A stretch of 49,997 nucleotides of DNA, taken from positions 1 through 49,997 of IMG/VR virus record IMGVR_UViG_2737471863_000004; one strand, 5' to 3'. This document shows positions 1 through 48,989 of this stretch, in pieces (the first letter of the stretch is position 1; the number at the start of each line of letters is the position of its first letter). The notes under the pieces were generated by a model. That model made no database searches and had not been told where the DNA came from. It saw only the letters and a list, made by a program, of their open reading frames with translations. Both the position numbers and the translations under genes were made by a program. The stretch comes from a virus (taxonomy: Duplodnaviria; Heunggongvirae; Uroviricota; Caudoviricetes).

Positions 1-228
1 ATGAGCTTATTGCCTCGGGAAAACGCACCCCAAAAAAGATATAGACTTCTGAGAATATCAGAAGTGATTAATTTGACTGGCTTACCCAAGTCAACAATTT
101 ATCTAAAGATAAAGAATGATGAATTTCCGAACCAAGTTTCTATCGGTTCTCGTTCTGTTGCATGGGTGGAGCATGAAGTTAATGAATGGATAGAGAAGAA
201 TATTCTCAATAGAAAATTAAACTCCTAA
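1..228 (+). CDS. alpA: AlpA/Vis-family prophage regulatory protein (HTH, excisionase-like)
   Basis: 75 aa; motif RLLRISEVINLTGLPKSTIYLKIKNDEFP...SVAWVEHEVNEWI is typical of AlpA/P4 Vis. Recognised from memory of the family. Confidence 0.85.
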   Translation: MSLLPRENAPQKRYRLLRISEVINLTGLPKSTIYLKIKNDEFPNQVSIGSRSVAWVEHEVNEWIEKNILNRKLNS

Positions 229-245
229 ATTGAGGTGGCAAATAT

Positions 246-1106
246 ATGGTTGACAATGTTTTTAAGAAGAAATTGGCATCAATTAAGAACGAACATGTGT
301 CGGTGTTAGATAGTTACAAAGTAAGATCATTTAAAGAGACTCATAGCGACACGGCCTGTATTGTGCGTATTATTGAAATATATTCACTGAATAAGCTGCG
401 AGCTAAAGGTGAAAAGCTGTATTCACTTACGGGGTTAACAGTACCTGATACGGAAACTGTGGCGAATGAGATCAACCTGCTCCTGAGCCGTTATGCCCAG
501 TTGTGTCGTCAGGAAGAGGAAGAGTTATCTTTCCGGCAGCGTGAAGTGACAAATGCGGAAGTTGCATGGAAAAGCACATTCTCAAAAAACGGCGTCAGTA
601 GCATTGCTGAAGCCAAAACGAATAAAATGGGGCATGCTGAACGAGCGGATGCTGAACGGTATTACCATCTGGCTGTTTCCCGGTTGAATGAACAACATAG
701 TCGATTGAGCACGATCAAGCTTTTGCCGGGAGTACTGGCCGATGAAGGAAACTACATTGGGAAGGGAATCGATAAGCGTTTACTGAATATATTTCCTCAA
801 TCCGGCCAGATCCCTGCTGATTTTATTTCTGTATTTAATGACAGTGACGTTGTCCGTGATATTAAATTTATTACTGATGCACTCAAGTCTTTATCTGATT
901 CCGTGAGTGAAATTATTAGTCGTTGTAGCGTTCCAACTGATCGTTATGTATTAAATAACGGTGGAATGGCAAGAGCTATGGCTTACAGGGAGTACTATCG
1001 AGCAGATAATTATGTATTACGTTCAGTCGTAAGTGACCGGGATTATGTTGAGCATGTAATGAAATACAATCTGGTTACTGAGTACAAAAATAAAATCTTT
1101 TCTTAA
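246..1106 (+). CDS. Hypothetical protein of the satellite left operon; possible capsid-assembly partner of the downstream gene (positional inference only)
   Basis: 286-aa ORF with an ATG start 18 bp after alpA, co-oriented, normal GC; no motif recognised. Confidence 0.55.
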   Translation: MVDNVFKKKLASIKNEHVSVLDSYKVRSFKETHSDTACIVRIIEIYSLNKLRAKGEKLYSLTGLTVPDTETVANEINLLLSRYAQLCRQEEEELSFRQREVTNAEVAWKSTFSKNGVSSIAEAKTNKMGHAERADAERYYHLAVSRLNEQHSRLSTIKLLPGVLADEGNYIGKGIDKRLLNIFPQSGQIPADFISVFNDSDVVRDIKFITDALKSLSDSVSEIISRCSVPTDRYVLNNGGMARAMAYREYYRADNYVLRSVVSDRDYVEHVMKYNLVTEYKNKIFS

Positions 1107-1128
1107 ATACTTAAAAAGGTGAAAAACT

Positions 1129-2133
1129 ATGTATGCCTTCAAAACTGAAAGGCCGGACGCAGCACGTCGTTATCATAATAAATTCGTCACTGGCACTAAC
1201 TATCAGGAAGAATCAAACAGACGCTTTGCATTAAGCGAACCTACTGAAAATATACTGCGTACCTCAATTCTGGAATCCGGGTGGCTTATTAAAAATATTA
1301 CCCTACGTGATGTTAACGCCGTGTCAGGTAATGCCGTCAATATTGGTGCCAGTGAACTGTATACCGGACGTGTGGATGGTGGCCGTTTCCACAAAAAAAT
1401 GGCAATCAATGGTACGGAGTTCTTTCTGACAGAGACGGATACCTGCGCCCGGATCAGCTATTCCGATATGTCTCATATTTACCATACCGGCGTGCCGGAT
1501 GAGTTTGAGAAAACGGTTGAGAGCTTTTTTGCCCAGGCATATGCGCTGGACATGCTGCGGGTCGGTTTCAATGGTGTGTCGATTGCAAATACTACAAACC
1601 CGGAAATCAATAAAAAAGGCGAGGATGTCAATATTGGCTGGCATGCACTGGCGAAAGCCTACGGGAACGGAAAGCAAATCATCTCTGAGCCTGTCACTCT
1701 GGGAGAGACTGGCACCTGGAAAAATATTGATGCTCTGGCCAACCATCTGATTACAGAGCTTATTGCTGAGCAGTTTCGTGAAGATCCTCGTCTGGTTGTA
1801 CTGGTTGGGGCAGAGCTGGCAGCACATCAACGCCTGAAGTTATTTAATGCCGCAGACCGCCCGTCTGATGTGAATGCGGCACAGATGGCTACAAGTTCTG
1901 TTGCTGGCCGCTTTGCGTTTATTCCCCCGTTTATGCCGGGTAAGCGTCTGGCAGTAACGACGCTGGATAATCTGCATATTTACACTCAGGCGATAACACG
2001 CTGGTTTCGTGCTGAGTTTGATGATGAAAGCAGTGAATACGTGCATTCCTACCTGCGCAATGAAGGTTATGCACTCGGTGAACCTGAACTGTACGCGGCT
2101 GTCGATGAGAGCGCCCTGACGTTTGCGGATTGA
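1129..2133 (+). CDS. Probable P2 GpN-family major capsid protein homologue
   Basis: 334 aa; blocks GFNGV, NIGW, EDPRLVVLVGAEL and TTLDNLHIY align with my recollection of P2 GpN (GFNGV, VGW, EDPDLVVIVG, ENLSIY). Recalled, not searched. Confidence 0.5.
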   Translation: MYAFKTERPDAARRYHNKFVTGTNYQEESNRRFALSEPTENILRTSILESGWLIKNITLRDVNAVSGNAVNIGASELYTGRVDGGRFHKKMAINGTEFFLTETDTCARISYSDMSHIYHTGVPDEFEKTVESFFAQAYALDMLRVGFNGVSIANTTNPEINKKGEDVNIGWHALAKAYGNGKQIISEPVTLGETGTWKNIDALANHLITELIAEQFREDPRLVVLVGAELAAHQRLKLFNAADRPSDVNAAQMATSSVAGRFAFIPPFMPGKRLAVTTLDNLHIYTQAITRWFRAEFDDESSEYVHSYLRNEGYALGEPELYAAVDESALTFAD

Positions 2134-2146
2134 CTTAGCGACAGAA

Positions 2147-2175
2147 AGACCCGCTCAGAGGCGGGTCTCGTTTAC
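2147..2175 (+). terminator. Possible intrinsic terminator after the capsid-like gene
   Basis: GC hairpin AGACCCGC-loop-GCGGGTCT followed by a weak T stretch (CGTTTAC). Confidence 0.35.
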
Positions 2176-2324
2176 AGCATCAGGAAAAATGAAGAACTAT
2201 TTTTAAGCAGAGGCTTAAGCATGCCAGCGTTAATTAATCCAGGCAATGATCAGTTTTCGGTTATAAATTTCTTGCCTCACCAGGAATGCGCGGGATATAG
2301 TTTAAAGGTTGCCGCAAAATCGGC

Positions 2325-2600
2325 AGCCGGGCGTAGGAACCCGTGTTATCTGAAGGCGATACTACACGCGCCAGGCGTGTTTTTTTGTGTCGCAGCTTTG
2401 ACTCACCTAAAATTTATGGTGTGGTGGCTGATTGTATTTTTTTATTTTTTACGCCACATCATCAGAATTATGGTAGTCCAGGCGGGGCAGCTTTCGGGCT
2501 GGCCGGTATCCTTCAGAGCCGGTATTCCTACCCCCGTCTGGGCTACCACCCATGAGCGTAGGAACTCCGGTGGTAGCGTTACCCGCTATCTGAAGGAGGT
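2325..2600 (+). promoter_or_regulatory. P4-type immunity region: two direct repeats (seqA/seqC-like) flanking a complementary segment (seqB/CI-RNA-like)
   Basis: GCGTAGGAAC...TATCTGAAGG occurs at about 2331..2356 and 2557..2596. Between them, about 2510..2530 (CCTTCAGA...TTCCTAC) is the reverse complement of both halves. A hairpin plus T7 run at about 2369..2387 follows the first repeat. Confidence 0.45.
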
Positions 2601-2607
2601 TGCCATT

Positions 2608-2811
2608 ATGGCTACAGTCCCTGCTTTATCTCACCCTGAATTTACCTTTGTCTTTCTGGCTGTCCGCCGTACAGACCGTGATGCCCGTCCACGCCCTGTG
2701 CGTGTAATCGCAGAATGCGAGCATGCTGCACGCCTTAAACTTGCCACTGAATTTATCCTGAGCTTTGCTGCCCGTATCCCTGTGAAAAGAGCCGGGGAGG
2801 TGGTTGCATGA
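2608..2811 (+). CDS. Small hypothetical protein, 67 aa
   Basis: ATG at 2608 preceded by strong SD AAGGAGG; the SD lies inside the second immunity repeat. The start is internal to a longer track ORF that I reject. Confidence 0.4.
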   Translation: MATVPALSHPEFTFVFLAVRRTDRDARPRPVRVIAECEHAARLKLATEFILSFAARIPVKRAGEVVA

Positions 2812-3044
2812 AATCCATGAATTTTAAGCAAGGCTGCATATTGAGTGAACAGGGGGAGAGTCGTCTGTTACGGGCGGCACTGGCCAGTGAGTTTCTTGCA
2901 GAGGTCTTGTCCGTGCCCACAGTGAATGGAGCGAGAACTGTTTCAGCGGAAGGCGCTGCGGCTTTAGTGGCCTGTATTGCCGAACAACTGGATGGCGTTG
3001 TTAAGGAAACCAGCACAATTAAGGGAGTGATGCGCGATGAATAA
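2808..3044 (+). CDS. Hypothetical protein, 78 aa, upstream of the primase (position analogous to P4 epsilon)
   Basis: ORF with overlapping stop/start coupling to neighbours in the same operon. Confidence 0.45.
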   Translation: MKSMNFKQGCILSEQGESRLLRAALASEFLAEVLSVPTVNGARTVSAEGAAALVACIAEQLDGVVKETSTIKGVMRDE

Positions 3045-3447
3045 TAATCAAAATTTAAAGGCGCATGCTTTACGAACAGCAGTCTTACGCTACTACATTG
3101 CTGATGCATTCATTTCCTTAATGGTGCGTGTTCATAATGAACCTGTTTATATTGAAGATGGCGAACGAATAGAACTCTCCCACGAAAAAGTGGTGAGTAA
3201 TATTATTTACCATATTGAAATGCCGTGGGTGAATGAGTTTGGGGCTGATGCTGGTTGCATACTGGCCGCAGAGAAACTGGAAAAAATGCTTAAACCAGGC
3301 TTTATGTCAGAAAATATTCGCCTGTCAGTTTTTGGTGTCACAGAGATGCGTGAGGTTTACCGGGATATTATTTTCGGAGCACCTGATGGCGAACTACCCG
3401 AAGGTTTTGAATTTGTGAAGCCGGAAGGTCAGGAGGTGCTGCTGTGA
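3037..3447 (+). CDS. Hypothetical protein, 136 aa
   Basis: ORF whose stop overlaps the primase start (operon coupling). Confidence 0.5.
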   Translation: MNNNQNLKAHALRTAVLRYYIADAFISLMVRVHNEPVYIEDGERIELSHEKVVSNIIYHIEMPWVNEFGADAGCILAAEKLEKMLKPGFMSENIRLSVFGVTEMREVYRDIIFGAPDGELPEGFEFVKPEGQEVLL

Positions 3448-6131
3448 AAACACCGTCTGTATCCACGATTTCCGGAGCTGCAATTGGGCGCTGGCCTTAT
3501 ATCCTGTCAGCATTAGGTATTAAAGTACCGTCCGCAGGACATCATGGGGCTTGCCCTGCCTGTGGTGGAAAAGATCGTTTTCGACTGGACGATAAAGCGG
3601 GGCGAGGGACGTGGTTTTGTAATCAGTGCGGTCATGGCGATGGTCTTGATCTGGTTCGTCTGGTGACAGGAAGAAAGATAAAAGAAGTCGCCGGGATGGT
3701 ATCTGAGGCGCTTGCATTACCAGAAATACAGGAGAAGCCCGCATTGCCAGCCAGGAAAAAGGCCGCAGGAAAAGAAGCGGGCGCGGAGCGATATACCAGA
3801 CTCAGACAGCAGTCCTGCAATGGTGAGCCGGTCTATCTGACAAATAAGGGCTTACACGGGTATTCACTTCCCTTGCTGTCACAGCCTTTGAATCTGGCCG
3901 GAATAACATTTTCCACCGGTTCATTACTGCTGCCTTTGACGGATATTTCCGGGAATATTACTGGTGGCCAGCTTATCAATCCTGACGGGGATAAAAGTCT
4001 GCTGCCCGGTAGCCAGCTGTCTGGCGCATTCATTGCCCTGACCGATATACCCGCTGAAACACCTGAACAGGTGATTATCACTGAGGGTTTTGCCACGGCG
4101 CTTACCGTCAGTCTGCTGACTGAAGGATGGATCGTGGCGGCTGTCGCTGCCACCAATTTACTGAAGGTGACGGAGCAGATCCGAAAACGCTGGCCGGAAA
4201 CTCGGATCATTCTGGCCGGAGATAATGATCTGGCTGACGGCAAAGAAAACACCGGGCGTATTCAGGCAGAGAAAGCCGCCAAAGCGGTGGATGGCTGGGT
4301 AACGCTCCCTCCGGTACGCCATAAGGCTGACTGGGATGATTATCGGCAGGAAGTGGGGAAAGAACGGGCGAGAGATGCCTTTCGTGAAGAAATGACGCTG
4401 CATGGCAAAGGGCAGACCCGTTTACCAGAAGGGTTCCGGCTGACAAAAGAATATTTGTGGTACGACAAGCTGGTTAATAAGTCTGATGGTGATACAGAGA
4501 TACGTAATATCAAAATTTGCAGTCCGTTGCGGGTGACGGCAATCACCAGTGATGCTGATGGAAGTAATTACGGGCGTTTGCTGGAATGGGAAGATACCAA
4601 CGGAAACAGCCGTAAATGGGCAATGCCGATGGAGATGCTGGGCGGTAGCGGGGAAGAACTGCGCCGCGTTCTGCTGGTTAACGGGCTTTCTTACATCAAC
4701 ATTAATGGCATGGCCAGAGCATTCCTGATGGAATATATCTCGCTGTGTAAACCGGACAGAAAAGTAACCTGTGTGAATAAAACTGGCTGGCACGGCGGGG
4801 TTTACGTTCTCCAGGATGAAGTGATAGGGCGCGAAGCCCAGTCAGTCATCTTACAAACATCGAGTGTGCAGGGGCGTGATTTTCGTGTCAGCGGCACATC
4901 AGAGGGCTGGCGTGAAAATATAGGCCGTTATTGCATAAAGAATGCCCGTCTTGCCTTTGCGGTGAGTCTGGCATTTGCTGCCCCCCTTCTGAAACTGGTT
5001 GGTATCGGCGGTGGAGGTTATCACCTCAAAGGGGAATCCACAGACGGTAAAACCACGACGATGAAAGTGGCTGCATCAGTATGTGGTGGAACAGATTTCT
5101 GGCATACGTGGCGGGCGACGGGGAATGCCTTAGAAGGAACGGCGAGCCGCCGCAATGATGCCACGCTGATGCTGGATGAAATCCGGGAGGTTGACGGCAG
5201 GGAGGCGGGGAATATCGCTTATATGCTGGCTAACGGGCAGGGCAAAGCCAGAGCCAGAACAGATGGTTCGGTAAGGGAAACCAACCGCTGGAATCTGTTG
5301 TTTCTGTCTACCGGGGAACTGTCACTGGTAGAGCATGCGGCAAGCGCCGGGGAACGTACGTATGCCGGGGTTGAGGTCAGAATGATCCAGATCCCAAGCG
5401 ATTCGGGCAAGTATGGCGTGTTTGAAGAACTTCATGGCTTCAGTAGCGGGAAAACCCTGGCTGAGCATCTTGAGCAGCACGTAGCGCATTATCATGGTGC
5501 ACCATTCCGCGACTGGCTGTATTGCCTGACCGCTGATCTGCCGGAACTGACCAGTCAGGCGAAAGCCTTATTGAAAGAGTATACCCGAAGGCTGACGCCG
5601 GAAAATGCCGGGAATCAGGTTGGCCGGGCTGTTACCCGTTTTGCTCTGGTTGCGATGGCCGGGGAGCTGGCCACAAAAGCGGGCATCACAGGATGGCCGG
5701 AGGGAGAGGCCTTTCGTGCCGCTCAAAGCTGTCTGGCTGCATGGATGGCTGACCGGGGCCATACAGCTAATCAGGAAGATAAAGCGGCACTTGAACAGGT
5801 TCGGGACTTCATGACGCGTAATCAGTTCAGTCGGTTTGCTGACTGGAATGACGACAGGAACCGGCCTGTTTCAATGATGGGATTCAGAAAAGTCGATAAA
5901 GGAGACAACGTGACAGAGCCGGTTGTGACGTTCTACGTTCTCCCGTCAGGCTGGAAGGAGATCTGTAAGGGATTTGACTCGCGTAAGGTGGCCAGGTTGT
6001 GTGTGGACGCGGGCTGGCTGAAACCCGGTGAAGATGGCCGGACGCAAAACAGCATTCGCCTGCCAGAAATAGGGCTTAAACGTGTGTACCAGTTCAATAC
6101 ACAGGTACTGGGAAGCGCTGAACCTGAGTGA
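3444..6131 (+). CDS. P4 alpha-type primase-helicase
   Basis: 895 aa; N-terminal Cys/His zinc-ribbon (CPACGG...CNQCGH) and Walker A GESTDGKTT. Family recognised from memory. Confidence 0.85.
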   Translation: MKTPSVSTISGAAIGRWPYILSALGIKVPSAGHHGACPACGGKDRFRLDDKAGRGTWFCNQCGHGDGLDLVRLVTGRKIKEVAGMVSEALALPEIQEKPALPARKKAAGKEAGAERYTRLRQQSCNGEPVYLTNKGLHGYSLPLLSQPLNLAGITFSTGSLLLPLTDISGNITGGQLINPDGDKSLLPGSQLSGAFIALTDIPAETPEQVIITEGFATALTVSLLTEGWIVAAVAATNLLKVTEQIRKRWPETRIILAGDNDLADGKENTGRIQAEKAAKAVDGWVTLPPVRHKADWDDYRQEVGKERARDAFREEMTLHGKGQTRLPEGFRLTKEYLWYDKLVNKSDGDTEIRNIKICSPLRVTAITSDADGSNYGRLLEWEDTNGNSRKWAMPMEMLGGSGEELRRVLLVNGLSYININGMARAFLMEYISLCKPDRKVTCVNKTGWHGGVYVLQDEVIGREAQSVILQTSSVQGRDFRVSGTSEGWRENIGRYCIKNARLAFAVSLAFAAPLLKLVGIGGGGYHLKGESTDGKTTTMKVAASVCGGTDFWHTWRATGNALEGTASRRNDATLMLDEIREVDGREAGNIAYMLANGQGKARARTDGSVRETNRWNLLFLSTGELSLVEHAASAGERTYAGVEVRMIQIPSDSGKYGVFEELHGFSSGKTLAEHLEQHVAHYHGAPFRDWLYCLTADLPELTSQAKALLKEYTRRLTPENAGNQVGRAVTRFALVAMAGELATKAGITGWPEGEAFRAAQSCLAAWMADRGHTANQEDKAALEQVRDFMTRNQFSRFADWNDDRNRPVSMMGFRKVDKGDNVTEPVVTFYVLPSGWKEICKGFDSRKVARLCVDAGWLKPGEDGRTQNSIRLPEIGLKRVYQFNTQVLGSAEPE

Positions 6132-6157
6132 TTATCGCGTGAGTCTTATTTTTATGA

Positions 6158-6350
6158 GGTAACACTGGTAACAGAGGTAACACCCGTTACTGATGCGGTT
6201 CTTCAGTGTTACCAGTCAAAAATACTGACTGGTAACAGAGGTAACAAAAAATGGTGTGTTACCACGCGTTACCTCTTGATTTTGCTAACTGGTAACAGAT
6301 TAAATCCTTTTAAATCAATAGCGTTACACGTGTTACCAGTGTTACACGTT
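6158..6350. repeat. Iteron array (putative ori/crr-like primase binding sites)
   Basis: At least nine copies of GGTAACA / TGTTACC in both orientations within about 200 bp just after the primase gene; resembles P4 type I iterons (TGTTCACC). Confidence 0.55.
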
Positions 6351-6413
6351 CAGAACAAGAGGTAGGGATCCAAATCCCTTCTTCTGGCGGGCAACAGTAT
6401 AGGGCACAGAACG

Positions 6414-6686
6414 ATGAAGATGATGAGAATGTACTGCCCCACATGTCAGGCAGTAGCACGGATAGGTAAAACAAACAGGAAACACCCACAACTGTACGAT
6501 GTGTACTGCTATTGCTCTAATGTGGAGTGCGGTCACTCGTTTGTGATGAATGTTGCTTTCTCCCATTCCGTTAGTCCAAGCGCGCTGAACGGGCAGGGAA
6601 GGGTTAAAGAGCTGATTGATGCAATTCCACCCGAGGAACGGGAAAAGGCTTTAAAGTTGCTGCTGGCTGCGCAAAAGAATGGGTAA
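6414..6686 (+). CDS. Ogr/Delta-family zinc-finger late-gene activator
   Basis: Motif MYCPTCQ...CYCSNVECGH matches the CxxC...CxxxxC Ogr/Delta pattern; the true start may be one of the internal Met codons. Confidence 0.75.
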   Translation: MKMMRMYCPTCQAVARIGKTNRKHPQLYDVYCYCSNVECGHSFVMNVAFSHSVSPSALNGQGRVKELIDAIPPEEREKALKLLLAAQKNG

Positions 6687-7366
6687 AGTATGCGTCGGGA
6701 ATGGCCGATCTGTTCCCGGAACCTGAACACAGGATTTCAGTTTATACGGTCATAAAATTATTATTTTTCAACTGGTTATCTTCTTCATGTTTCACAAACC
6801 TTCATAAAATCACACACCTAAAATTAATTATCCATTTAATATCATAGAGTTGCGTATTCAGGCCATAGATTCGACGGACAGTAAAACTGAAAAAAAATGA
6901 ATTTCTTTTCATTCTTTTCAGTTCCTGTATCGCAGTACATCTCGAGGACTGGCACGGACTGGCGGTATCGTTTGTAAAAAATCCAGGCTGAAAATTTTTA
7001 GTGATATGAAAACCGCAGGCGGGTGCGGTGTAGTGCCGTTTTGGTCTGTCGAGCGTATATTTTCCCTTTTTCACGATTGCTGCATATCAAAACGAATGTG
7101 CAGATATCAGGCCGTGTCAAACCGTGAATCGTGGAGCCTAAATGCCCAAACTACGTTTGTAGACCTAGCTAGGGGAAGGTTTCCACATATACTGCTACCT
7201 ATCTTCCAGTCGCTGGTGAGGATCAAGGTAAGCTAACTGGTGAACAAGAAAAGTACTTTCGTATCTTGCGTACTCGTTTTTTTTGATTAGTATGTACAGG
7301 TAGTAACTGGATGGTGAGAATTCGTCATAACTTATCAAATTGCATGATGTTTATAGAGTATGAGTA

Positions 7367-8248
7367 ATGAGTCATAATAAAAAGGAATATGCTAAATTTT
7401 TCCGTCGCCCCATTTTTTCATCCTTAGCAAAAGGTAAGGATATTTCGGATTTATTTGGGAGTTTTGATTCTTACTGCTATGAAACACTGTTTTCAAACAA
7501 TGATAATAATGAACATGAGATTTCACTAAGGGATTTATTTACATCATTATATGATTTTTTGCGTCTGAATTATAGAAATGAATATGTTTATAAGACAGCA
7601 CTTGTCAATAAAATAATATTCGGTAAGCACAGCCCAAAAACAAGTTCGTCGTCCATAGAGTTACCAATTAAAAACTCTATAGTGGATGTTGCGGTGTTTA
7701 ATGGTACGTCTACAGCTTACGAGATTAAGACAGAGTATGATTCACCAAAAAGGTTGATTACTCAAGCCCCTGATTATTTGGATGTTTTTGATAAAGTGTA
7801 TATAGTTACACATCCAGAGTATGCAAGTAAATATTGTGCTTTAAATCTCCCCAGAGTGGGAGTTATGGTTTTGAATAAAAAAGATCAATTGAGTGTCATT
7901 AAGGAGGCAGATTCAAATATTGATTATATTAAAAGTGACAGCTTGTTTTCAGTTCTTAGAAAGGAAGAGTTCTTAGCTATAATAGAAGATTACACTTCAA
8001 CTAAAATAAATATGCCTAATGGATTGGTTTATGAATATTGTAAAGAGATATTCATGCAGATGCCATTAAACATAGCAAATAAATACTTTATCTCTGCTAT
8101 GAAAAAAAGATGTAACGACAAAGTTTTTTTGGATTATATTTATTCTCTTCCAGCATGTTTACGTGTTTTAGGTTATGCAACACCATTATCAAGAAAGCAA
8201 AAAGAATTCATCATGAATTTGATGGATGTAAAAATTAAAATTTGTTGA
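7367..8248 (+). CDS. Cargo protein A, 293 aa, with a putative PD-(D/E)xK nuclease-like core
   Basis: Very AT-rich codon usage versus flanks. Motif IVDVAVFNGTSTAYEIKTE (D107, E119, K121) fits the restriction-endonuclease-like pattern. No signal peptide or TM segment seen. Confidence 0.7.
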   Translation: MSHNKKEYAKFFRRPIFSSLAKGKDISDLFGSFDSYCYETLFSNNDNNEHEISLRDLFTSLYDFLRLNYRNEYVYKTALVNKIIFGKHSPKTSSSSIELPIKNSIVDVAVFNGTSTAYEIKTEYDSPKRLITQAPDYLDVFDKVYIVTHPEYASKYCALNLPRVGVMVLNKKDQLSVIKEADSNIDYIKSDSLFSVLRKEEFLAIIEDYTSTKINMPNGLVYEYCKEIFMQMPLNIANKYFISAMKKRCNDKVFLDYIYSLPACLRVLGYATPLSRKQKEFIMNLMDVKIKIC

Positions 8249-8269
8249 TATCCTCAGGAGTTGTAAGTT

Positions 8270-9220
8270 ATGTATAGCCCATATTTGTATGCGAGAAGTA
8301 CAGAGTTATTATGCCTTAGGGACCTCGTTGCGAAGGGAGTTAGCCTAAATGGTCTGCTACCAATTTTAGAACCAATTAACGTCAATACGAGAAATTTATT
8401 AACATGTTTAAATGTTTGGAATTCTGACATAATTGTTATCCTTAATCCTTATCAGGAAGATTTTTCTTCACACAATAACGTCTTAACTTTAAATCAAAAT
8501 TTATCAAGTGTATTAACAAATAAAAACAATATCATCTCTGGATATCTTATTCAGCCCAATACAACGATTAATGATATTAATAATTGGTTGAATGCTAACT
8601 TAAATAGACGAGTTGCACTTCTATATGATAATCCATCATTATCCAACTCTGATATTCAGTTGTTGGCGACAAATCAATTGATTAGTTATCATGTTGTTTT
8701 AAATAATAAAATGCTTCCTAATCAGTGCGCTCTTCTTCCTTTGTCGAAGTTAATTATTATTAGCGATAACTTTAGAAAGTTAGCAAAAAATGCTGATTAT
8801 AATGGGCCGGAACTTTTCACGCACGCACATCAATTCGTGGGACAAAATTACTTAGGATTTGGCGATTATACAATTACTGGCCAGGTACTAGATCTTGGAG
8901 GTGGTCAACCTTCTGCTGTTGCCGCACATTTGGTGTTCAAGAATTTACAAGCGAATACAGTTTGGATTCGTCATTTTGTATCAAGCAACACGCAACGAGG
9001 AAGTTCAAATGTTACTGCAAAATTTTTAGATGTTTCAGATCAAATTACAAATCTTGTTCCCCAACATCCAACCCAGTTTGGCAGCAACATTGGTCTTAAC
9101 TATTATTATTACAATAGTCAACCAACTGTAAGGCATTTCCCTGGGTTGCCAAAAAACAAACAGTATCAAATTACTCACCATATTTGTTTCATGCTGGATT
9201 TAATAGCAGGTCGTATTTAA
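8270..9220 (+). CDS. Cargo protein B, 316 aa, function unknown
   Basis: AGGAG RBS 11 nt upstream; 21 bp after cargo A, so likely an operon. AT-rich; no motif recognised. Its 3' end overlaps the integrase 3' end by 21 bp, convergently. Confidence 0.7.
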   Translation: MYSPYLYARSTELLCLRDLVAKGVSLNGLLPILEPINVNTRNLLTCLNVWNSDIIVILNPYQEDFSSHNNVLTLNQNLSSVLTNKNNIISGYLIQPNTTINDINNWLNANLNRRVALLYDNPSLSNSDIQLLATNQLISYHVVLNNKMLPNQCALLPLSKLIIISDNFRKLAKNADYNGPELFTHAHQFVGQNYLGFGDYTITGQVLDLGGGQPSAVAAHLVFKNLQANTVWIRHFVSSNTQRGSSNVTAKFLDVSDQITNLVPQHPTQFGSNIGLNYYYYNSQPTVRHFPGLPKNKQYQITHHICFMLDLIAGRI

Positions 9221-10423
9221 TAAGCTAGCGTACCATTCCATCATTACTTGTCGATCTTTAATATATTGCGCATGATTGTAAGTACCTCGAATAGAGTTCT
9301 TATCAACATGCGCAAGCTGCATTTCAATCCAGGCACTTTCAAACCCATGCTCATGCAAGATGGTGCTCATGGTATGCCTGAAACCGTGACCCGTTAACCG
9401 ACCGTGATAACCCAGTAGTTTTATCACTTTGTTGATGCTGGCTTCGCTCATTGGTTTCCTGACGTCATTTCGGCCAGGGAAAACGAGGCTGTAATTCCCT
9501 GTTATTTCTTGCAGCTTTTTCAGGATATTGATCGCCTGAGTTGATAACGGAACCAGATGGGGGCGGCGTTTCTTCATCCGTTCTTTGGGGATCTCCCATA
9601 AGGCATTATCTAAATCAAACTCAGCCCATTCCGCTGCACGTAGTTCAATTGTTCGCACGCCTGTTAGCATCAACAGCTGCGTGGCGTATTTGGTAACTAA
9701 ACTGCCCTGATAGTTATCCAGAGCATTAACGAACTCGGGCAACTCGCTTTCAGTCAGGAACGGGAAGTGTTGGGTTTTAGGTTTGTTGAGTGCGATAGCT
9801 AAATCGGGTGCAAAATTATACTTTGCTCTACCAGTGGCAACAGCATAACGAAGCACTTCACCACAGCGGCGGCGGATCTTACTGGTTTGCTCTAGCGCAC
9901 CTCTTTTCTCTATTTTTTGCAGGACGGTTAGCAGTTCTAATGGTTCAATCTGCTCAATTGGGCGCTGGCCGATAAAAGGAAAAATATCCTTTTCCATACA
10001 ATTGAGAACCTCTTTTGCATAACCCTCTGACCAGGTGGCTTTTTTCGATGAGTGCCATTCTCTGGCCACAGACTCAAAGCTGTTCTCATGCGCGAACTGC
10101 AAAGCAATCTTATCTGCTTTTCTGGCTTCACTTGGGTTTATCCCTTTGGCTAACATCGAACGCGCTTCATCACGTTTGGTACGTGCCTGTGCCAACGACA
10201 CATCGCCATATACGCCAAAGGAAATCATCTTAGGCTTACCTGCAAAGCGATAGCGAAAACGCCAGCCTTTACTGCCCGCTGTGTCGATCAGGAGTGATAG
10301 CCCCATACCATCGTTAAGCGTATAGGGTTTGTCCTTCGGTTTTGCTCTTTTTATTTGGATGTCAGATAGCAGCATGTGTATAGAAAAAAGATCGAACTCA
10401 GTTATACACAATGTTATACGCAA
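9200..10423 (-). CDS. Tyrosine integrase, IntS/P4 family, of the satellite
   Basis: N-terminal DKPYTLNDGMGLSL arm-binding motif and C-terminal HGFRH...RGTYNHAQY catalytic motifs; clear similarity across the length to IntS at 47596..48753. The likely true start is the internal Met at about 10375. Confidence 0.9.
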   Translation of the reverse strand: MRITLCITEFDLFSIHMLLSDIQIKRAKPKDKPYTLNDGMGLSLLIDTAGSKGWRFRYRFAGKPKMISFGVYGDVSLAQARTKRDEARSMLAKGINPSEARKADKIALQFAHENSFESVAREWHSSKKATWSEGYAKEVLNCMEKDIFPFIGQRPIEQIEPLELLTVLQKIEKRGALEQTSKIRRRCGEVLRYAVATGRAKYNFAPDLAIALNKPKTQHFPFLTESELPEFVNALDNYQGSLVTKYATQLLMLTGVRTIELRAAEWAEFDLDNALWEIPKERMKKRRPHLVPLSTQAINILKKLQEITGNYSLVFPGRNDVRKPMSEASINKVIKLLGYHGRLTGHGFRHTMSTILHEHGFESAWIEMQLAHVDKNSIRGTYNHAQYIKDRQVMMEWYASLLNTTCY

Positions 10424-10534
10424 AGATGTATAGATTCCATTAGAAATAATGGTACTTTGCTGGACGAGTATAAGGAGATGATATCAGTTAAAACAGTGAG
10501 TTATGGAATTAATTGGACTTAGTGAGAAGTGTTC

Positions 10535-10550
10535 ATGGTGTCCCCTGCAG
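10535..10550. repeat. att core copy (ATGGTGTCCCCTGCAG) at the junction between the two elements
   Basis: Exact 16-bp identity to 48914..48929, the 3' end of argW plus 1 nt. It lies between torI and the satellite integrase. Confidence 0.7.
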
Positions 10551-10623
10551 ACATCTACTTGAGGCGGCAGGGGATTGATTGGAATGGTGTTTTTTAGATG
10601 TGAAAAATATTTTACCCGCTATT

Positions 10624-10824
10624 TTACCCATTGGCGCGGCTTAAGAGCTTATTTTTGAATTCACAATGGTCACGATATAACCATCTTGCTCGTCCGTGGA
10701 TAACTTTGGCTTTAGGCAGGTCGCCGGACTTAATCCGGTCATAGATGAAGGTCTTACCGAAGCCAGTATCAGCCATGATGAATTTCAAATCAACCAGTGA
10801 ATCAGGTTGTAGTTCGTGTTGCAT
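10624..10824 (-). CDS. torI: TorI-type excisionase (recombination directionality factor)
   Basis: 66 aa, MQHELQPDSLVDLKFIMADTGFGKTFIYDRIKSGDLPKAKVIHGRARW..., matching the E. coli KplE1 TorI as I recall it; located next to the att core. Confidence 0.8.
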   Translation of the reverse strand: MQHELQPDSLVDLKFIMADTGFGKTFIYDRIKSGDLPKAKVIHGRARWLYRDHCEFKNKLLSRANG

Positions 10825-10843
10825 GAGTGCTATCTCCGAATAT

Positions 10844-10859
10844 GGAATCGAACCTGCAA
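10844..10859. repeat. 16-bp argW-derived fragment (GGAATCGAACCTGCAA), not a functional tRNA
   Basis: Identical to argW 48929..48944 (T-arm region), but the flanks do not fold into a tRNA; separated from the att core by the torI gene. Confidence 0.5.
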
Positions 10860-10946
10860 ATCAGGCAATAAAAAGCCGCATTGATGCAGCAATGGTAGGT
10901 CTGGATATCTTGAGAAATGAACAGGCCTCATCGAGTGTGAGGCGGG

Positions 10947-11291
10947 TTAGTCCTTGCGTAGCTCGCTGATTCTTCTGTAAGTCTCTGGTGCTTTGTTCCC
11001 GTACGCCTTCATTTCAGACTTCAACAGAGCAACGAGTGAATCCCATTCGTTGAGGATTCCTTTGAATGCCGGAACGCGCTTTGCAACCTTGTCGAATGAA
11101 TCTCTGATTTCTGGAATCTGCTCAACAAGTGCAACGCATCGTCGGAAATCGGCTGCGTCATGTGGAGCGCCGAAGTGATGACCATAGATATTCTTTTTCA
11201 GTCCACATGCGATTGAGGCAAGAGTTGCGCTACTGATGCCAACATCGCCAGTCGATTGCCATTTCAAAACCTTCATAGCCAAATCTGACAT
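10947..11291 (-). CDS. Hypothetical early-left protein, 114 aa
   Basis: ORF co-oriented with the leftward early operon. Confidence 0.5.
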   Translation of the reverse strand: MSDLAMKVLKWQSTGDVGISSATLASIACGLKKNIYGHHFGAPHDAADFRRCVALVEQIPEIRDSFDKVAKRVPAFKGILNEWDSLVALLKSEMKAYGNKAPETYRRISELRKD

Positions 11292-34370: not shown

Positions 34371-35624
34371 ATGGCTAACCAATTAGCAAAAGACCTTGAA
34401 ATCATGTTCGAAAACTACGTTGAAGGCTTTGAGGCCGCCTGCGTAGTTTCCCGTAACGCTAAAAAATTCCGTCCCGGTGATACAGCAATGCAGCGAGCAG
34501 GTGATGTTCTGTATCGTCCGCAGCATTACCACATGAACATTGAGGAAGGCCTCGATCTCAGCGGAAAAACGCCAACAGCACTGGTTCAGCGCCTTGTTCC
34601 TTCAGTGTTCAAGGAGCCGAAAAACATTCTGTACACTCTGGATGCGCGTGAAATGCGTGACCCGGAACATAAAACTGAAGCTGGTCGCGCCGCAGGTATG
34701 CGCCTTGCTGCACAGATTGACTCTGACCTGATTTCCATGGTCACACAGCGTGCTACTAACGTGATCACAATGGCTGACTCAACCACTGGTTCACAGGGCC
34801 GTGATTTGTGGAACTGTGCGGCAGGTATTGATGCCACCATGACGGCGATTGGTGTACCACAGGGTATCAACCGCCGCTCTTTCTGGAACCCCTTCAACTA
34901 TAAAGACCTTGCTGGCGAGCTTGGTCACCGTGCCTATGCTCAGGGCGCAACCCTGACAGCATACGAAAAAGCGCAGATCCCTCCGGTTGCTTCCTTTGAT
35001 AGCTACAAGACCGATATTTCTGGTCGTGTTCCGAAGGGTACAGCAACTTCCATTACGCTGGCAGCAGCACCTGCGCACAAGGTTGAAGCGAAAGATGCTA
35101 ACGATATGCCAGTGGATAACCGACAGGGGACCATTACGGTATCTGCTGAAGGTTTGCAGGTTGGCGATGCGTTTACCATCGCAGGGGTGAATTCCGTACA
35201 CCAGATCACCAAAGATACCACCGGGCAGCCGCAGGTATTCCGCGTTCTGGCAGTTAGCGGAACGACAGTAACTATCTCCCCGAAAATTCTGCCGCCTGAC
35301 AACGCGGATGTCGCCAGCCGTCCATATGCAAACGTTGATGCTAATGCGGCAAGTAGCGCAGCAATTACCATTCTCAACAAAAATGCCGCACCGGCTAACC
35401 TGTTCTGGGCTGATGGTTCTGTTGAACTGATGTACGGCAAACTGGCGTTCCCGACTGGTCAGGGTCCACAGGTAATGACAGCAACCACCGAGCAGGGCGC
35501 TACGCTGATCATGTCTTACGCCTTCGACCATATCAAAGGCGTAACCACTGCGCGTTTCACCACTCTGTACGGTTGCTCTGTACTGGTTCCTGAATATACG
35601 GGCATCGTTATTGCCGGGCAGTAA
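34371..35624 (+). CDS. Major coat protein (P22 gp5-like)
   Basis: 417 aa, followed by a strong intrinsic terminator; P22-like gene order. Confidence 0.75.
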   Translation: MANQLAKDLEIMFENYVEGFEAACVVSRNAKKFRPGDTAMQRAGDVLYRPQHYHMNIEEGLDLSGKTPTALVQRLVPSVFKEPKNILYTLDAREMRDPEHKTEAGRAAGMRLAAQIDSDLISMVTQRATNVITMADSTTGSQGRDLWNCAAGIDATMTAIGVPQGINRRSFWNPFNYKDLAGELGHRAYAQGATLTAYEKAQIPPVASFDSYKTDISGRVPKGTATSITLAAAPAHKVEAKDANDMPVDNRQGTITVSAEGLQVGDAFTIAGVNSVHQITKDTTGQPQVFRVLAVSGTTVTISPKILPPDNADVASRPYANVDANAASSAAITILNKNAAPANLFWADGSVELMYGKLAFPTGQGPQVMTATTEQGATLIMSYAFDHIKGVTTARFTTLYGCSVLVPEYTGIVIAGQ

Positions 35625-47595: not shown

Positions 47596-48753
47596 TCACT
47601 CCACCTTTTCATCAAGCCAGTCCGCCCACCACTGCATCATTTCTCTGCGCTTATCGAGATACTGTGCATGGTTGTAAATCCCACGCACAGATCCGCCGTT
47701 GGCATGTGCCAGTTGCACTTCAATGGCGTCGGCAGGCCATTCGTGCTCGTTCATAATCGTGCTGAATTCATGCCTGAATCCGTGACCGCTTTCCAGCCCC
47801 TCATAGCCGATTTGTTTGATCACAAGTAGCACCGCGTTCTCGCAGATTGGCTTCTTCTTATCGTTGCGCCCGGCAAAAACAAACTCTGATACTGGTTTGG
47901 TGATTGAGCTTAGCGTAGTGAGAAGTTCAACTACCTGGTCTGACATAGGAACCACATGAATTTTGCGTCCCTTCATCACATTGGCGTCGATGGTGATAAT
48001 ACTGTTTTCAAAATCGACGTTCTTCCATTGCATGGAACGAAGCTCTTTCGTTCTTAGGGCTGTGTAGCGTAAAACTTTGGTCGCAATGAGCGATACGATG
48101 CTTCCTGAAAATGTTGCCAGTGCTTTGTTGAATGCCGGGATCTGGTCTGCAGGAAGAAACGGGAAGTTCTTCTTGCGGTATCCCTTCATGGCGTCAGCAA
48201 GGTCAGGTGCAGGGTTATATTTAGCCCTGCCGGTGACAATAGCGTAACGGAAAACCTCGCCGCATCTTCTGCGGGCTTTATTGGCTCGCTCCATTGCACC
48301 GCGATCTTCAAATCTGCGGATTACTTCAAGAAGTTGCATCGGCTCAATATCCTGAATTTCAAGGCCGCCGATGATAGGTAAAATGTCGTCATCAAACATT
48401 TTTGCAAGTTCAGTCGCATACCCTACTGACCATACTTGCTTCTTGTGCTCGTACCATTCTTTGTAAATCGCACTAAAGGAATTGTTGTTAGACGAAGCCT
48501 TTTTCGCCTTTACCGGATCGATGCCAACCGAGATGTCTTTCTTCGCGGTCCATGCTTTATCTCTTGCCTCCTGCAAAGTCATTAGCGGATATTTTCCTAC
48601 GGTCAGTATTTTTTCCTTACCGTCAATCTTGTAGCGAAGCTGCCATACCTTTTTCCCTGATACAGGGACATAAAGATACAGGCCATTACCATCGAGAAGG
48701 CGGTATGGTTTTTCTTTCGGCTTTGCTGCTTCAATCTGCTTAACGGTGAGCAT
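47596..48753 (-). CDS. intS: Integrase IntS (tyrosine recombinase, argW-specific)
   Basis: From the internal Met MLTVKQIEAAKPKEKPYRLLDGNGLYLYV..., near-identical to E. coli K-12 IntS as recalled; adjacent to argW. Confidence 0.9.
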   Translation of the reverse strand: MLTVKQIEAAKPKEKPYRLLDGNGLYLYVPVSGKKVWQLRYKIDGKEKILTVGKYPLMTLQEARDKAWTAKKDISVGIDPVKAKKASSNNNSFSAIYKEWYEHKKQVWSVGYATELAKMFDDDILPIIGGLEIQDIEPMQLLEVIRRFEDRGAMERANKARRRCGEVFRYAIVTGRAKYNPAPDLADAMKGYRKKNFPFLPADQIPAFNKALATFSGSIVSLIATKVLRYTALRTKELRSMQWKNVDFENSIITIDANVMKGRKIHVVPMSDQVVELLTTLSSITKPVSEFVFAGRNDKKKPICENAVLLVIKQIGYEGLESGHGFRHEFSTIMNEHEWPADAIEVQLAHANGGSVRGIYNHAQYLDKRREMMQWWADWLDEKVE

Positions 48754-48914
48754 GGGTAAAAATCCGGTGGGTAAAATTATTTTATCCACTTTTTACCCGT
48801 CATGGTGTGCGGCTGTCAACGATCTGACGCGAACCATGACGAACCGTGAATATACGGAAGGCTTGATATTCAGGGGATTTTGCGGACTGGTGCGGATGGG
48901 AGCGAACTGATAAA

Positions 48915-48989
48915 TGGTGTCCCCTGCAGGAATCGAACCTGCAATTAGCCCTTAGGAGGGGCTCGTTATATCCATTTAACTAAGAGGAC
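48915..48989 (-). tRNA. argW: tRNA-Arg (anticodon CCU), argW
   Basis: Reverse complement GTCCTCTTAGTTAAATGGATATAACGAGCCCCTCCTAAGGGCTAATTGCAGGTTCGATTCCTGCAGGGGACACCA folds as a cloverleaf with anticodon loop CUCCUAA and a CCA end; its 3' end carries the att core. Confidence 0.9.

Follow-up and report, generated by a model that had tools for sequence, protein, structure and literature searches.

Why should a prophage inserted at argW carry a second, displaced piece of this tRNA gene next to its excisionase gene torI, and what could be its role there? In the 49,997-nt stretch of viral DNA analysed here (the window), GGAATCGAACCTGCAA occurs in two exact copies, one at 10844-10859 and the other inside argW at 48929-48944, and no third match was found in the window with up to two mismatches allowed (expected 0.04). 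The displaced copy lies on the minus strand at -35 to -20 from the torI ATG; its coding strand reads TTGCAGGTTCGATTCC, and it is exact in KplE1 of E. coli K-12 too. TTGCAGGTTCGATTCC consists of the 5' strand of the argW T-stem, the T-loop and the first two bases (CC) of the 3' strand of the T-stem. The original prediction, that the fragment is identical to argW and contiguous with the att core there, was confirmed: the match is exact, and the argW copy abuts the core directly on its 5' side, one G being common to both. The 16-mer and the torI-side att core are both in tRNA-sense orientation. It was also correct that two tRNA-derived blocks flank torI, as the gene (10624-10824, minus strand) stands between 10535-10550 and 10844-10859. 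The 16-mer and the att core are separated by 292 bp, that is torI and the P arm, in all phages examined.

To assess chance, the prophage interior (38 kb) was Markov-shuffled 300 times and matches to argW were taken on either strand. The longest exact match to argW in the shuffles was 9-14 nt and never 16 (0/300), which agrees with the earlier judgement that a chance match of 16 bp is very unlikely. The match of the 16-mer is a real tRNA-type identity, and this identity points to the derivation of the block from a tRNA gene. Its length of 16 nt is probably composed of 13 conserved nt and a TTG that perhaps matches by chance. This outer TTG is confined to the E. coli group; it may be a chance match (1/64) because other lineages have other bases there, or else it may derive from the TTGC string of the leader. 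ARAGORN found argW as the only tRNA in the window and none around the 16-mer, and an Rfam search of 10400-11100 gave no family match at E<=10. A tRNA gene, pseudogene or tRNA-like RNA at the 16-mer is thereby excluded, and the statement that its flanks fold into no tRNA was upheld. A full-text literature search for GGTTCGATTCC gave nothing on this recombination module among the 15 of 154 matches listed.

The prophage is P22-like, about 38 kb long, and bounded by a duplicated att core of 16 nt, ATGGTGTCCCCTGCAG. The core on the torI side (10535-10550, minus strand, CTGCAGGGGACACCAT) is attR in the KplE1 nomenclature (PMC2951348), and its duplicate (48914-48929, minus strand) lies within the intact argW on the attL side. 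The argW gene (48915-48989, minus strand) codes for tRNA-Arg(CCU), called by ARAGORN as CCT. Adjoining it and transcribed away from it is intS (47596-48753, minus strand), whose product, a P4-type tyrosine integrase of 385 aa, is 98-99% identical to the Int proteins of Sf6 and HK620. The intS-side arm contains five TorI-type pentamers between 48820 and 48907 (minus strand), namely GTTCG at 48903-48907, GTCCG at 48883-48887, GTTCG at 48840-48844, GTTCG at 48830-48834 and GATCG at 48820-48824. They agree with the published layout of I1-I5, spacing included, with I1 and I2 12 nt apart and I3-I5 2 nt apart (PMC2951348). TTGACA is present at 48814-48819, which puts the intS promoter within the att arm. 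On the other side, torI codes for an RDF/excisionase of 66 aa, 100% identical to HkaC of HK620 and gp18 of Sf6. Two copies of the P-arm repeat GGGTAAAA (10610-10629, minus strand), annotated as attP repeat in the HK620 record, are read as IntS arm-type sites. A 32-aa ORF (10533-10631, minus strand), the counterpart of HK620 hkaB and Sf6 gene 17, spans the P arm and the att core, and its 3' end is altered by integration.

The 16-mer is placed between the ribosome-binding site of torI, with the Shine-Dalgarno sequence (SD) GGAGAT at 10832-10837 (minus strand), and an intrinsic-terminator-like hairpin, GCTGCATCAATGCGGC followed by a T-run (10866-10890, minus strand), which is directly upstream. 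This hairpin closes a gene of the early left operon (10947-11291, minus strand) coding for 114 aa, a homolog of HK022 gp32 and phage 434 ORF114. A terminator scan upstream of the 16-mer detected two terminator-like hairpins. In the hairpin tail that follows the upstream gene, the minus strand at 10915-10924 reads CTGTTCATTT, a match to 9/10 positions of the TorR tor box consensus CTGTTCATAT; since the region is common to HK022-type phages, this match is probably coincidental.

It should be mentioned that the DNA to the left of the torI-side att copy (1-10534) is not chromosome; it is a second element in tandem at argW, a P4-like satellite carrying a P4-type integrase of its own (ORF 9200-10423, minus strand) and an sce7725-family ORF (8270-9220, plus strand). 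The same satellite of about 11 kb is present directly at argW in E. coli ST131 (L299), where its genes code for an integrase, sce7725/7726, Ogr/Delta, a DUF927 primase-like protein, an Icd-like protein, a P2-family capsid protein and an HTH regulator. A 20-nt identity, ATGGTGTCCCCTGCAGGAAT, delimits it in L299 and extends 4 nt further into the T-loop than the phage core, and a (CCCAG)n tract of about 20-25 units (~35255-35365) is located just inside its dsdC-side boundary. No third att copy was found inside the window, and no displaced T-arm block was found in the tandem satellite. The prophage-satellite junction (ccatgaacacttctcactaagtcc...) recurs just after the att core in four viral contigs (L115, L129, L135, L137), which suggests that tandem occupancy of argW is common.

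Comparison of sequences across the family shows that a family-wide element, (CAG)GTTCGATTCC(C), is represented in the E. coli group by the 16-mer. On the 5' side of GTTCG the sequence varies (TTGCAG, CCAA, CCCT, ACAG, CCAG, CTAG), so the family unit is taken as GTTCGATTCC(C), usually with CAG before it. In this prophage the block reads GTTCGATTCCA (10843-10853, minus strand) and lies at -29 to -19 from the torI ATG, with the SD 5 nt downstream of it. The starting points were annotated phages with TorI homologues, together with 160 loci on viral contigs, and clustering at <85% identity gave 15 Xis lineages. The block begins at -29/-28 from the xis/torI ATG in eight of the 15, one of the eight being decayed. 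Block-bearing lineages comprise Escherichia, Shigella, Salmonella and Erwinia phages and several metagenomic ones, with identity to TorI down to 36-39%. For instance, Salmonella Emek/g341c (Xis 49-52% identical to TorI) has AAGTTCGATTCCCaaaccGGAGATAA and Erwinia phiEt88 (36-39%) has AGGTTCGATTCCCagcaaAGGAG, while Erwinia Midgardsormr38 (88%) has two copies of the block 16 bp apart. In the other seven lineages the block is absent and the leaders are unrelated; EhrS49 and Chronis are without it although their Xis proteins are 82-86% identical to TorI. As it is missing from seven of 15 lineages, the block is dispensable for a working module. Decayed versions were seen in L134, L137 and L160. The Midgardsormr38-like Erwinia phages have a 16-bp tandem duplication, CAGGTTCGATTCCCgt CAGGTTCGATTCCCac, directly before the xis SD; it is present in L006 (2456-2487), L166 and L168, and L167 has a single copy.

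In an identity profile of seven block-bearing lineages, the block had a mean pairwise identity of 0.95, the SD 0.81, the 5-nt spacer 0.43 and the 5' flank 0.42; for xis codon positions 2, 1 and 3 it was 0.80, 0.65 and 0.42. A second profile, in which block status was not used for selection, gave the same picture of conservation. No other segment of the locus is as well conserved as the block; 5 nt away on either side the sequence is randomised, and the spacing of the block to the SD (5 nt) and to the ATG is fixed across lineages. When 32 T-loop variants were admitted in a pattern search at the leader register, 118/119 hits had GTTCGATTC. An identity of about 95% against about 42% in third positions and flanks argues that the block is evidently under selection and is no neutral relic. 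Among 80 E. coli-group viral contigs, singletons are about as frequent inside the 16-mer as beside it, a count that carries no information at this depth. An in-frame N-terminal extension of Xis was considered for the block and rejected, because the E. coli group has an in-frame TGA upstream and the SD and ATG are conserved. The comparison with related argW phages that had been proposed found the fragment in the free phage genomes of IME10, HZ41, Sf6 and HK620, which have the same leader in attP configuration, and in KplE1 of E. coli K-12, which carries this leader also; the fragment is hence part of the phage DNA.

HK022, 434 and many Stx phages have the same 114-aa gene and terminator, and a few bases from the 16-mer, where their own xis leaders start, the homology breaks off. 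That homology ends at the terminator suggests that the hairpin marks a mosaic boundary of the recombination module, and that the 16-mer is the first recognisable element of the module proper. One leader of about 48 nt, ATTGCCTGATTTGCAGGTTCGATTCC(C/A)TATTCGGAGATAGCACTCATG, is joined in the 80 E. coli-group contigs to upstream contexts and terminators of at least three unrelated kinds. Even if inert, the block would be a useful marker of the left boundary of the module.

Is the block part of the att site? The suggestion that it is a required part was not borne out. In vitro excision was obtained with a 135-bp attR (PMC3509656, PMC2951348), and the phage-side primer of that fragment, attR-IHF2, maps to 10628-10647. 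The fragment ends about 200 bp short of the 16-mer, which consequently is not needed for excision in vitro. Moreover, the five mapped TorI sites of KplE1, each 8 bp long and built on a core GTTCG, GATCG or GTCCG, are all on the intS-side arm (PMC2951348). An uninterrupted segment of tRNA 3' homology that rebuilds argW on integration was rejected too, because the 16-mer is 292 bp away from the core.

The relation of the block to the target is clearer in the crossover geometry. Every module with a readable core (160+ loci) has the overlap TGCAGGG and an acceptor end of Arg-CCU type, with host-specific variants of the acceptor strand after TGCAGGG (GGGGACACCA, GGGGACGCCA, GGGAACGCCA); host tRNA-Arg(CCU) genes with variant acceptor ends retain the T-arm ..GCAGGTTCGATTCC... 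Comparison of attP cores (L004, L006-L010, L110, L113, L160, L163, L165) gave, across lineages, a C half-site GRYGTM, a 7-bp overlap TGCAGGG and a C' half-site GAC(A/G)CC. In EhrS49 and L110, GGTGTC, TGCAGGG and GACACC make a perfect inverted repeat, and GACGTC..GACGCC and GGCGTA..AACGCC show matched changes on both sides of the 7-bp spacer, seen in the L165 and L163 types. Inverted half-sites that covary around a 7-bp spacer indicate that TGCAGGG is the crossover region, in which case the TTCGATTCC of the tRNA is the B half-site of attB. The attP C half-sites next to the overlap fit TTNGRYGTM, and TTCGATTCC agrees at 7/9 positions, as would be expected of the T-arm as a natural B half-site. 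The leader block equals the B side of attB, GTTCGATTCC followed by TGCAGGG, and its tRNA identity ends exactly at the edge of the overlap. The family 11-mer GTTCGATTCCC has a final C where argW has T, and it fits tRNA-Gly T-arms as well. As all readable modules share one tRNA family, tracking of attB by the block is inseparable from common descent; no sister modules at another tRNA were found in the phage and viral collections searched. Distant phages with P4-type integrases (YeP5, VW-6S, Acinetobacter 5W, Acidovorax Acica and the F116 group) were rejected as comparators, since their gene order is different; in these the xis-like gene, where annotated, is convergent with int.

We propose that the block is a selected cis-regulatory site in the torI leader that arose from the T-arm half of attB, and most likely an operator for IntS and/or TorI; to this reading, built on sequence comparison, we give a probability of about 0.45. 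The element is found in the 5' leader of torI/xis, the excisionase gene, in modules ordered xis, attP, int that integrate into tRNA-Arg(CCU). It would be a phage-borne copy of the attB T-arm half, the sequence that in attB stands immediately 5' of TGCAGGG, and it lies outside the minimal att site. Standing between the upstream terminator and the torI ribosome-binding site, an operator-like block could tune the expression of torI through the DNA-binding proteins of the module, and the expression of torI would be the step that decides excision in KplE1-type modules. The authors of the KplE1 work (Panis, Ansaldi and co-workers) also hold that the excision switch depends on expression of the RDF gene (PMC2951348). 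A protein-binding element appears the most plausible class of function, and the block is probably a control element for excision. The regulatory role and the nature of its binder are inferences; a DNA site for the module's own proteins would suit an element that travels with xis.

Two candidates for the binder could be considered. The first is the core-binding domain of the integrase, which must recognise the identical sequence as the B half-site of attB. The second is TorI, whose mapped sites have the core GTTCG that is present in the block, within AGGTTCGA. Each has points against it. For TorI, the pentamer is followed by C or T in each of the 24 distinct arm sites listed and by A in the block of every lineage, the block has no helically phased partner site, and phiEt88 and L150 keep the block with arm repeats GTAAC/GTTAC and AGAACC, respectively. 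Some modules with TorI-family RDFs were seen to have arm repeats other than GTTCG, namely GATGTAACC/GTTACC, ATTACC/GTTACC and AGAACC (L010 at 2800-2900, and the int-side arms of L165/L172 and L150); such differing int-side repeats suggest that the DNA specificities of RDFs have diverged within one family. For IntS, the C half-sites drift between lineages (GATGTC, GATGTA, GGTGTC, GACGTC), a freedom that Int tolerates and that is not seen in the block. After the block comes (C/A)TATTCG GAGATA and not TGCAGGG GACACC. Without an adjacent overlap and an inverted partner the block cannot be a recombination substrate, and would be a decoy or an operator. A more specific form of the operator reading, which we hold as a tentative and rather unlikely possibility, is that the phage keeps a copy of the attB B half-site as a sensor, by which the core-binding domain of the integrase, possibly together with TorI, gates RDF synthesis. 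If so, target selection and the excision switch would rest on one and the same protein-DNA recognition, a regulatory logic so far undescribed for modules where xis and int are transcriptionally uncoupled.

The block could act in the RNA of the torI leader instead, either in a fold that sequesters the SD or the start codon or as a T-loop mimic for host tRNA enzymes. We consider this unlikely. Its fixed distance to the SD would be natural in such an element, RNAalifold proposes both helices (UUCC:GGAG and GUUCG:CGAAC, the latter with codons 3-5), and the upstream hairpin CCTGN...NCAGG has CCTGG/CCAGG versus CCTGT/ACAGG variants in some lineages. Invariance of the block despite differing Xis and Int specificities would suit an invariant host partner, and for the T-loop-mimic form there is the TruB/TrmA consensus GUUCNANNC. 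However, the RNAalifold consensus energy is just -2.6 kcal/mol with no compensatory pairs, and the CGAAC partner is missing in Midgardsormr38 and in L161, L163 and L169, all of which retain the block. No T-stem is conserved, ARAGORN and Rfam gave no hits, and the tandem duplication in Midgardsormr38 is more like the behaviour of a DNA site.

A neutral vestige is harder to sustain. It was thought earlier that the fragment may be a vestige of a longer tRNA-homologous attP into which torI was later placed; in this reading torI and the P arm would have ended up inside an ancestral contiguous copy of the 3' half of argW, the T-arm piece being a decaying relic without function. The block does have the orientation of the core and directly adjoins it in the tRNA, some lineages lack it or have it in decayed form, and it is unnecessary for excision in vitro (PMC3509656). 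A passive relic was nevertheless not borne out, because the block is the most conserved part of the locus where Xis is only 36-52% identical to TorI; it is 95% identical where third positions of xis and adjacent non-coding bases are at about 42%, and its distance to SD and ATG is fixed. The expected remainder of such a relic, TGCAGGGGACACCA, is unrecognisable after the block, and no relatives with longer contiguous tRNA homology and no xis between were found. On this balance a vestige is improbable.

The same can be said of a lambda-type pI promoter activated by cII, in which the cII box would be TTGCCTGATTTGC and the 16-mer would cover the second TTGC and the spacer. Database annotation speaks for it: in the HK620 record a binding site for the cII protein is marked, with a promoter of 39 nt whose end is 6 nt short of hkaC, and the Sf6 record has pI at the torI leader. 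In HK022 the canonical TTGCGTGTAATTGC occupies the corresponding position behind the same terminator. The canonical lambda cII box has a spacing of N6, but the TTGC repeats in TTGCCTGATTTGC are spaced by N5. The first TTGC varies (TTAC, TTTC) in many contigs of roughly full length (~40 kb), the repeats are absent from the leaders of Emek, phiEt88, Midgardsormr38 and L161, all of which have the block, and a sigma-70 scan found no -10/-35-like pair. Furthermore, intS has a mapped promoter of its own (PMC2951348).

Still less probable is a mosaic linker, a joint kept because lambdoid recombination reuses it to swap recombination modules. The end of HK022, 434 and Stx homology within a few bases of the 16-mer, the several upstream contexts that join one leader and the boundary sequence bsq2 annotated across the region in the Sf6 record are in its favour. 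But the joints are at or upstream of the terminator, outside the block, 11-13 nt is very short for homologous exchange, bsq2 spans the whole xis, and the fixed SD spacing would be left unexplained. Coincidence, for which it can be said that T-loop-like strings are common motifs and that the outer TTG may be chance (1/64), is practically negligible given 0/300 shuffles reaching 16 nt, 0.04 expected hits and conservation of the block in many lineages, and for the 13-nt core it is refuted.

A selected operator-like site in the RDF leader would matter beyond this prophage, as the type of module is widespread: it is present in KplE1/CPS-53 of E. coli K-12, HK620, Sf6, CUS-3 and many Salmonella and Erwinia prophages. 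In KplE1-type modules the integrase is made constitutively at low level. Rho-dependent termination is said to have been treated in connection with torI by Menouni et al. 2013. RDF expression decides excision, and according to the laboratory that characterised the system its control remains to be worked out (PMC2951348). An operator responsive to Int or the RDF would explain how such prophages avoid spurious excision, and a fragment of a host tRNA would in that case have been co-opted as a regulatory and not as a recombination site. Being the most conserved non-coding element beside the RDF gene, the block offers an obvious and cheap experimental handle, a target of 11 nt in K-12.

How does this element compare with known systems? 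The window prophage is a full-length member of the KplE1/HK620/Sf6 module group (TorI 100% and IntS 98-99% identical), with likewise the same 16-nt core, arm repeats and five TorI pentamers overlapping the intS promoter region (PMC2951348). In PMC2951348 and PMC3509656 the T-arm block is not among the sites mapped for KplE1, and it lies outside the attR used in vitro; the paper on the ROD21 RDF describes no parallel element. Compared with the TorI sites I1-I5, the block is alike in that its GTTCG is preceded by G as in I3 and I4, but it has A and not C/T after the pentamer and is on the other arm. The TorI sites are phased at 10 or 20 bp, whereas the block is single or, when duplicated, 16 bp apart. 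In the lambda/HK022 pI region there is the same place after the same upstream gene and terminator, and the E. coli-group leader starts TTGC...TTGC-like. The torI leader differs in having about 18 extra nt (AGGTTCGATTCCNTATTC) between TTGC and the SD, and its cII box is non-canonical and not conserved, unlike the block. The block shares with half-site B of attB all of the 10-13 nt next to TGCAGGG on its tRNA side, and attP C half-sites resemble it also (TTCGATGTA in Midgardsormr38 and phiEt88); it differs from half-site B in being without an adjacent overlap and an inverted partner. The usual tRNA segment of attP, by which the phage supplies the 3' part of the tRNA gene, is like the block in origin, orientation and T-arm specificity. 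The block, however, is 292 bp from the core, has no part in rebuilding argW and ends exactly where the crossover region would begin. A tRNA-derived sequence in a phage recombination module is of a known kind; here it offers a testable link to the control of RDF expression.
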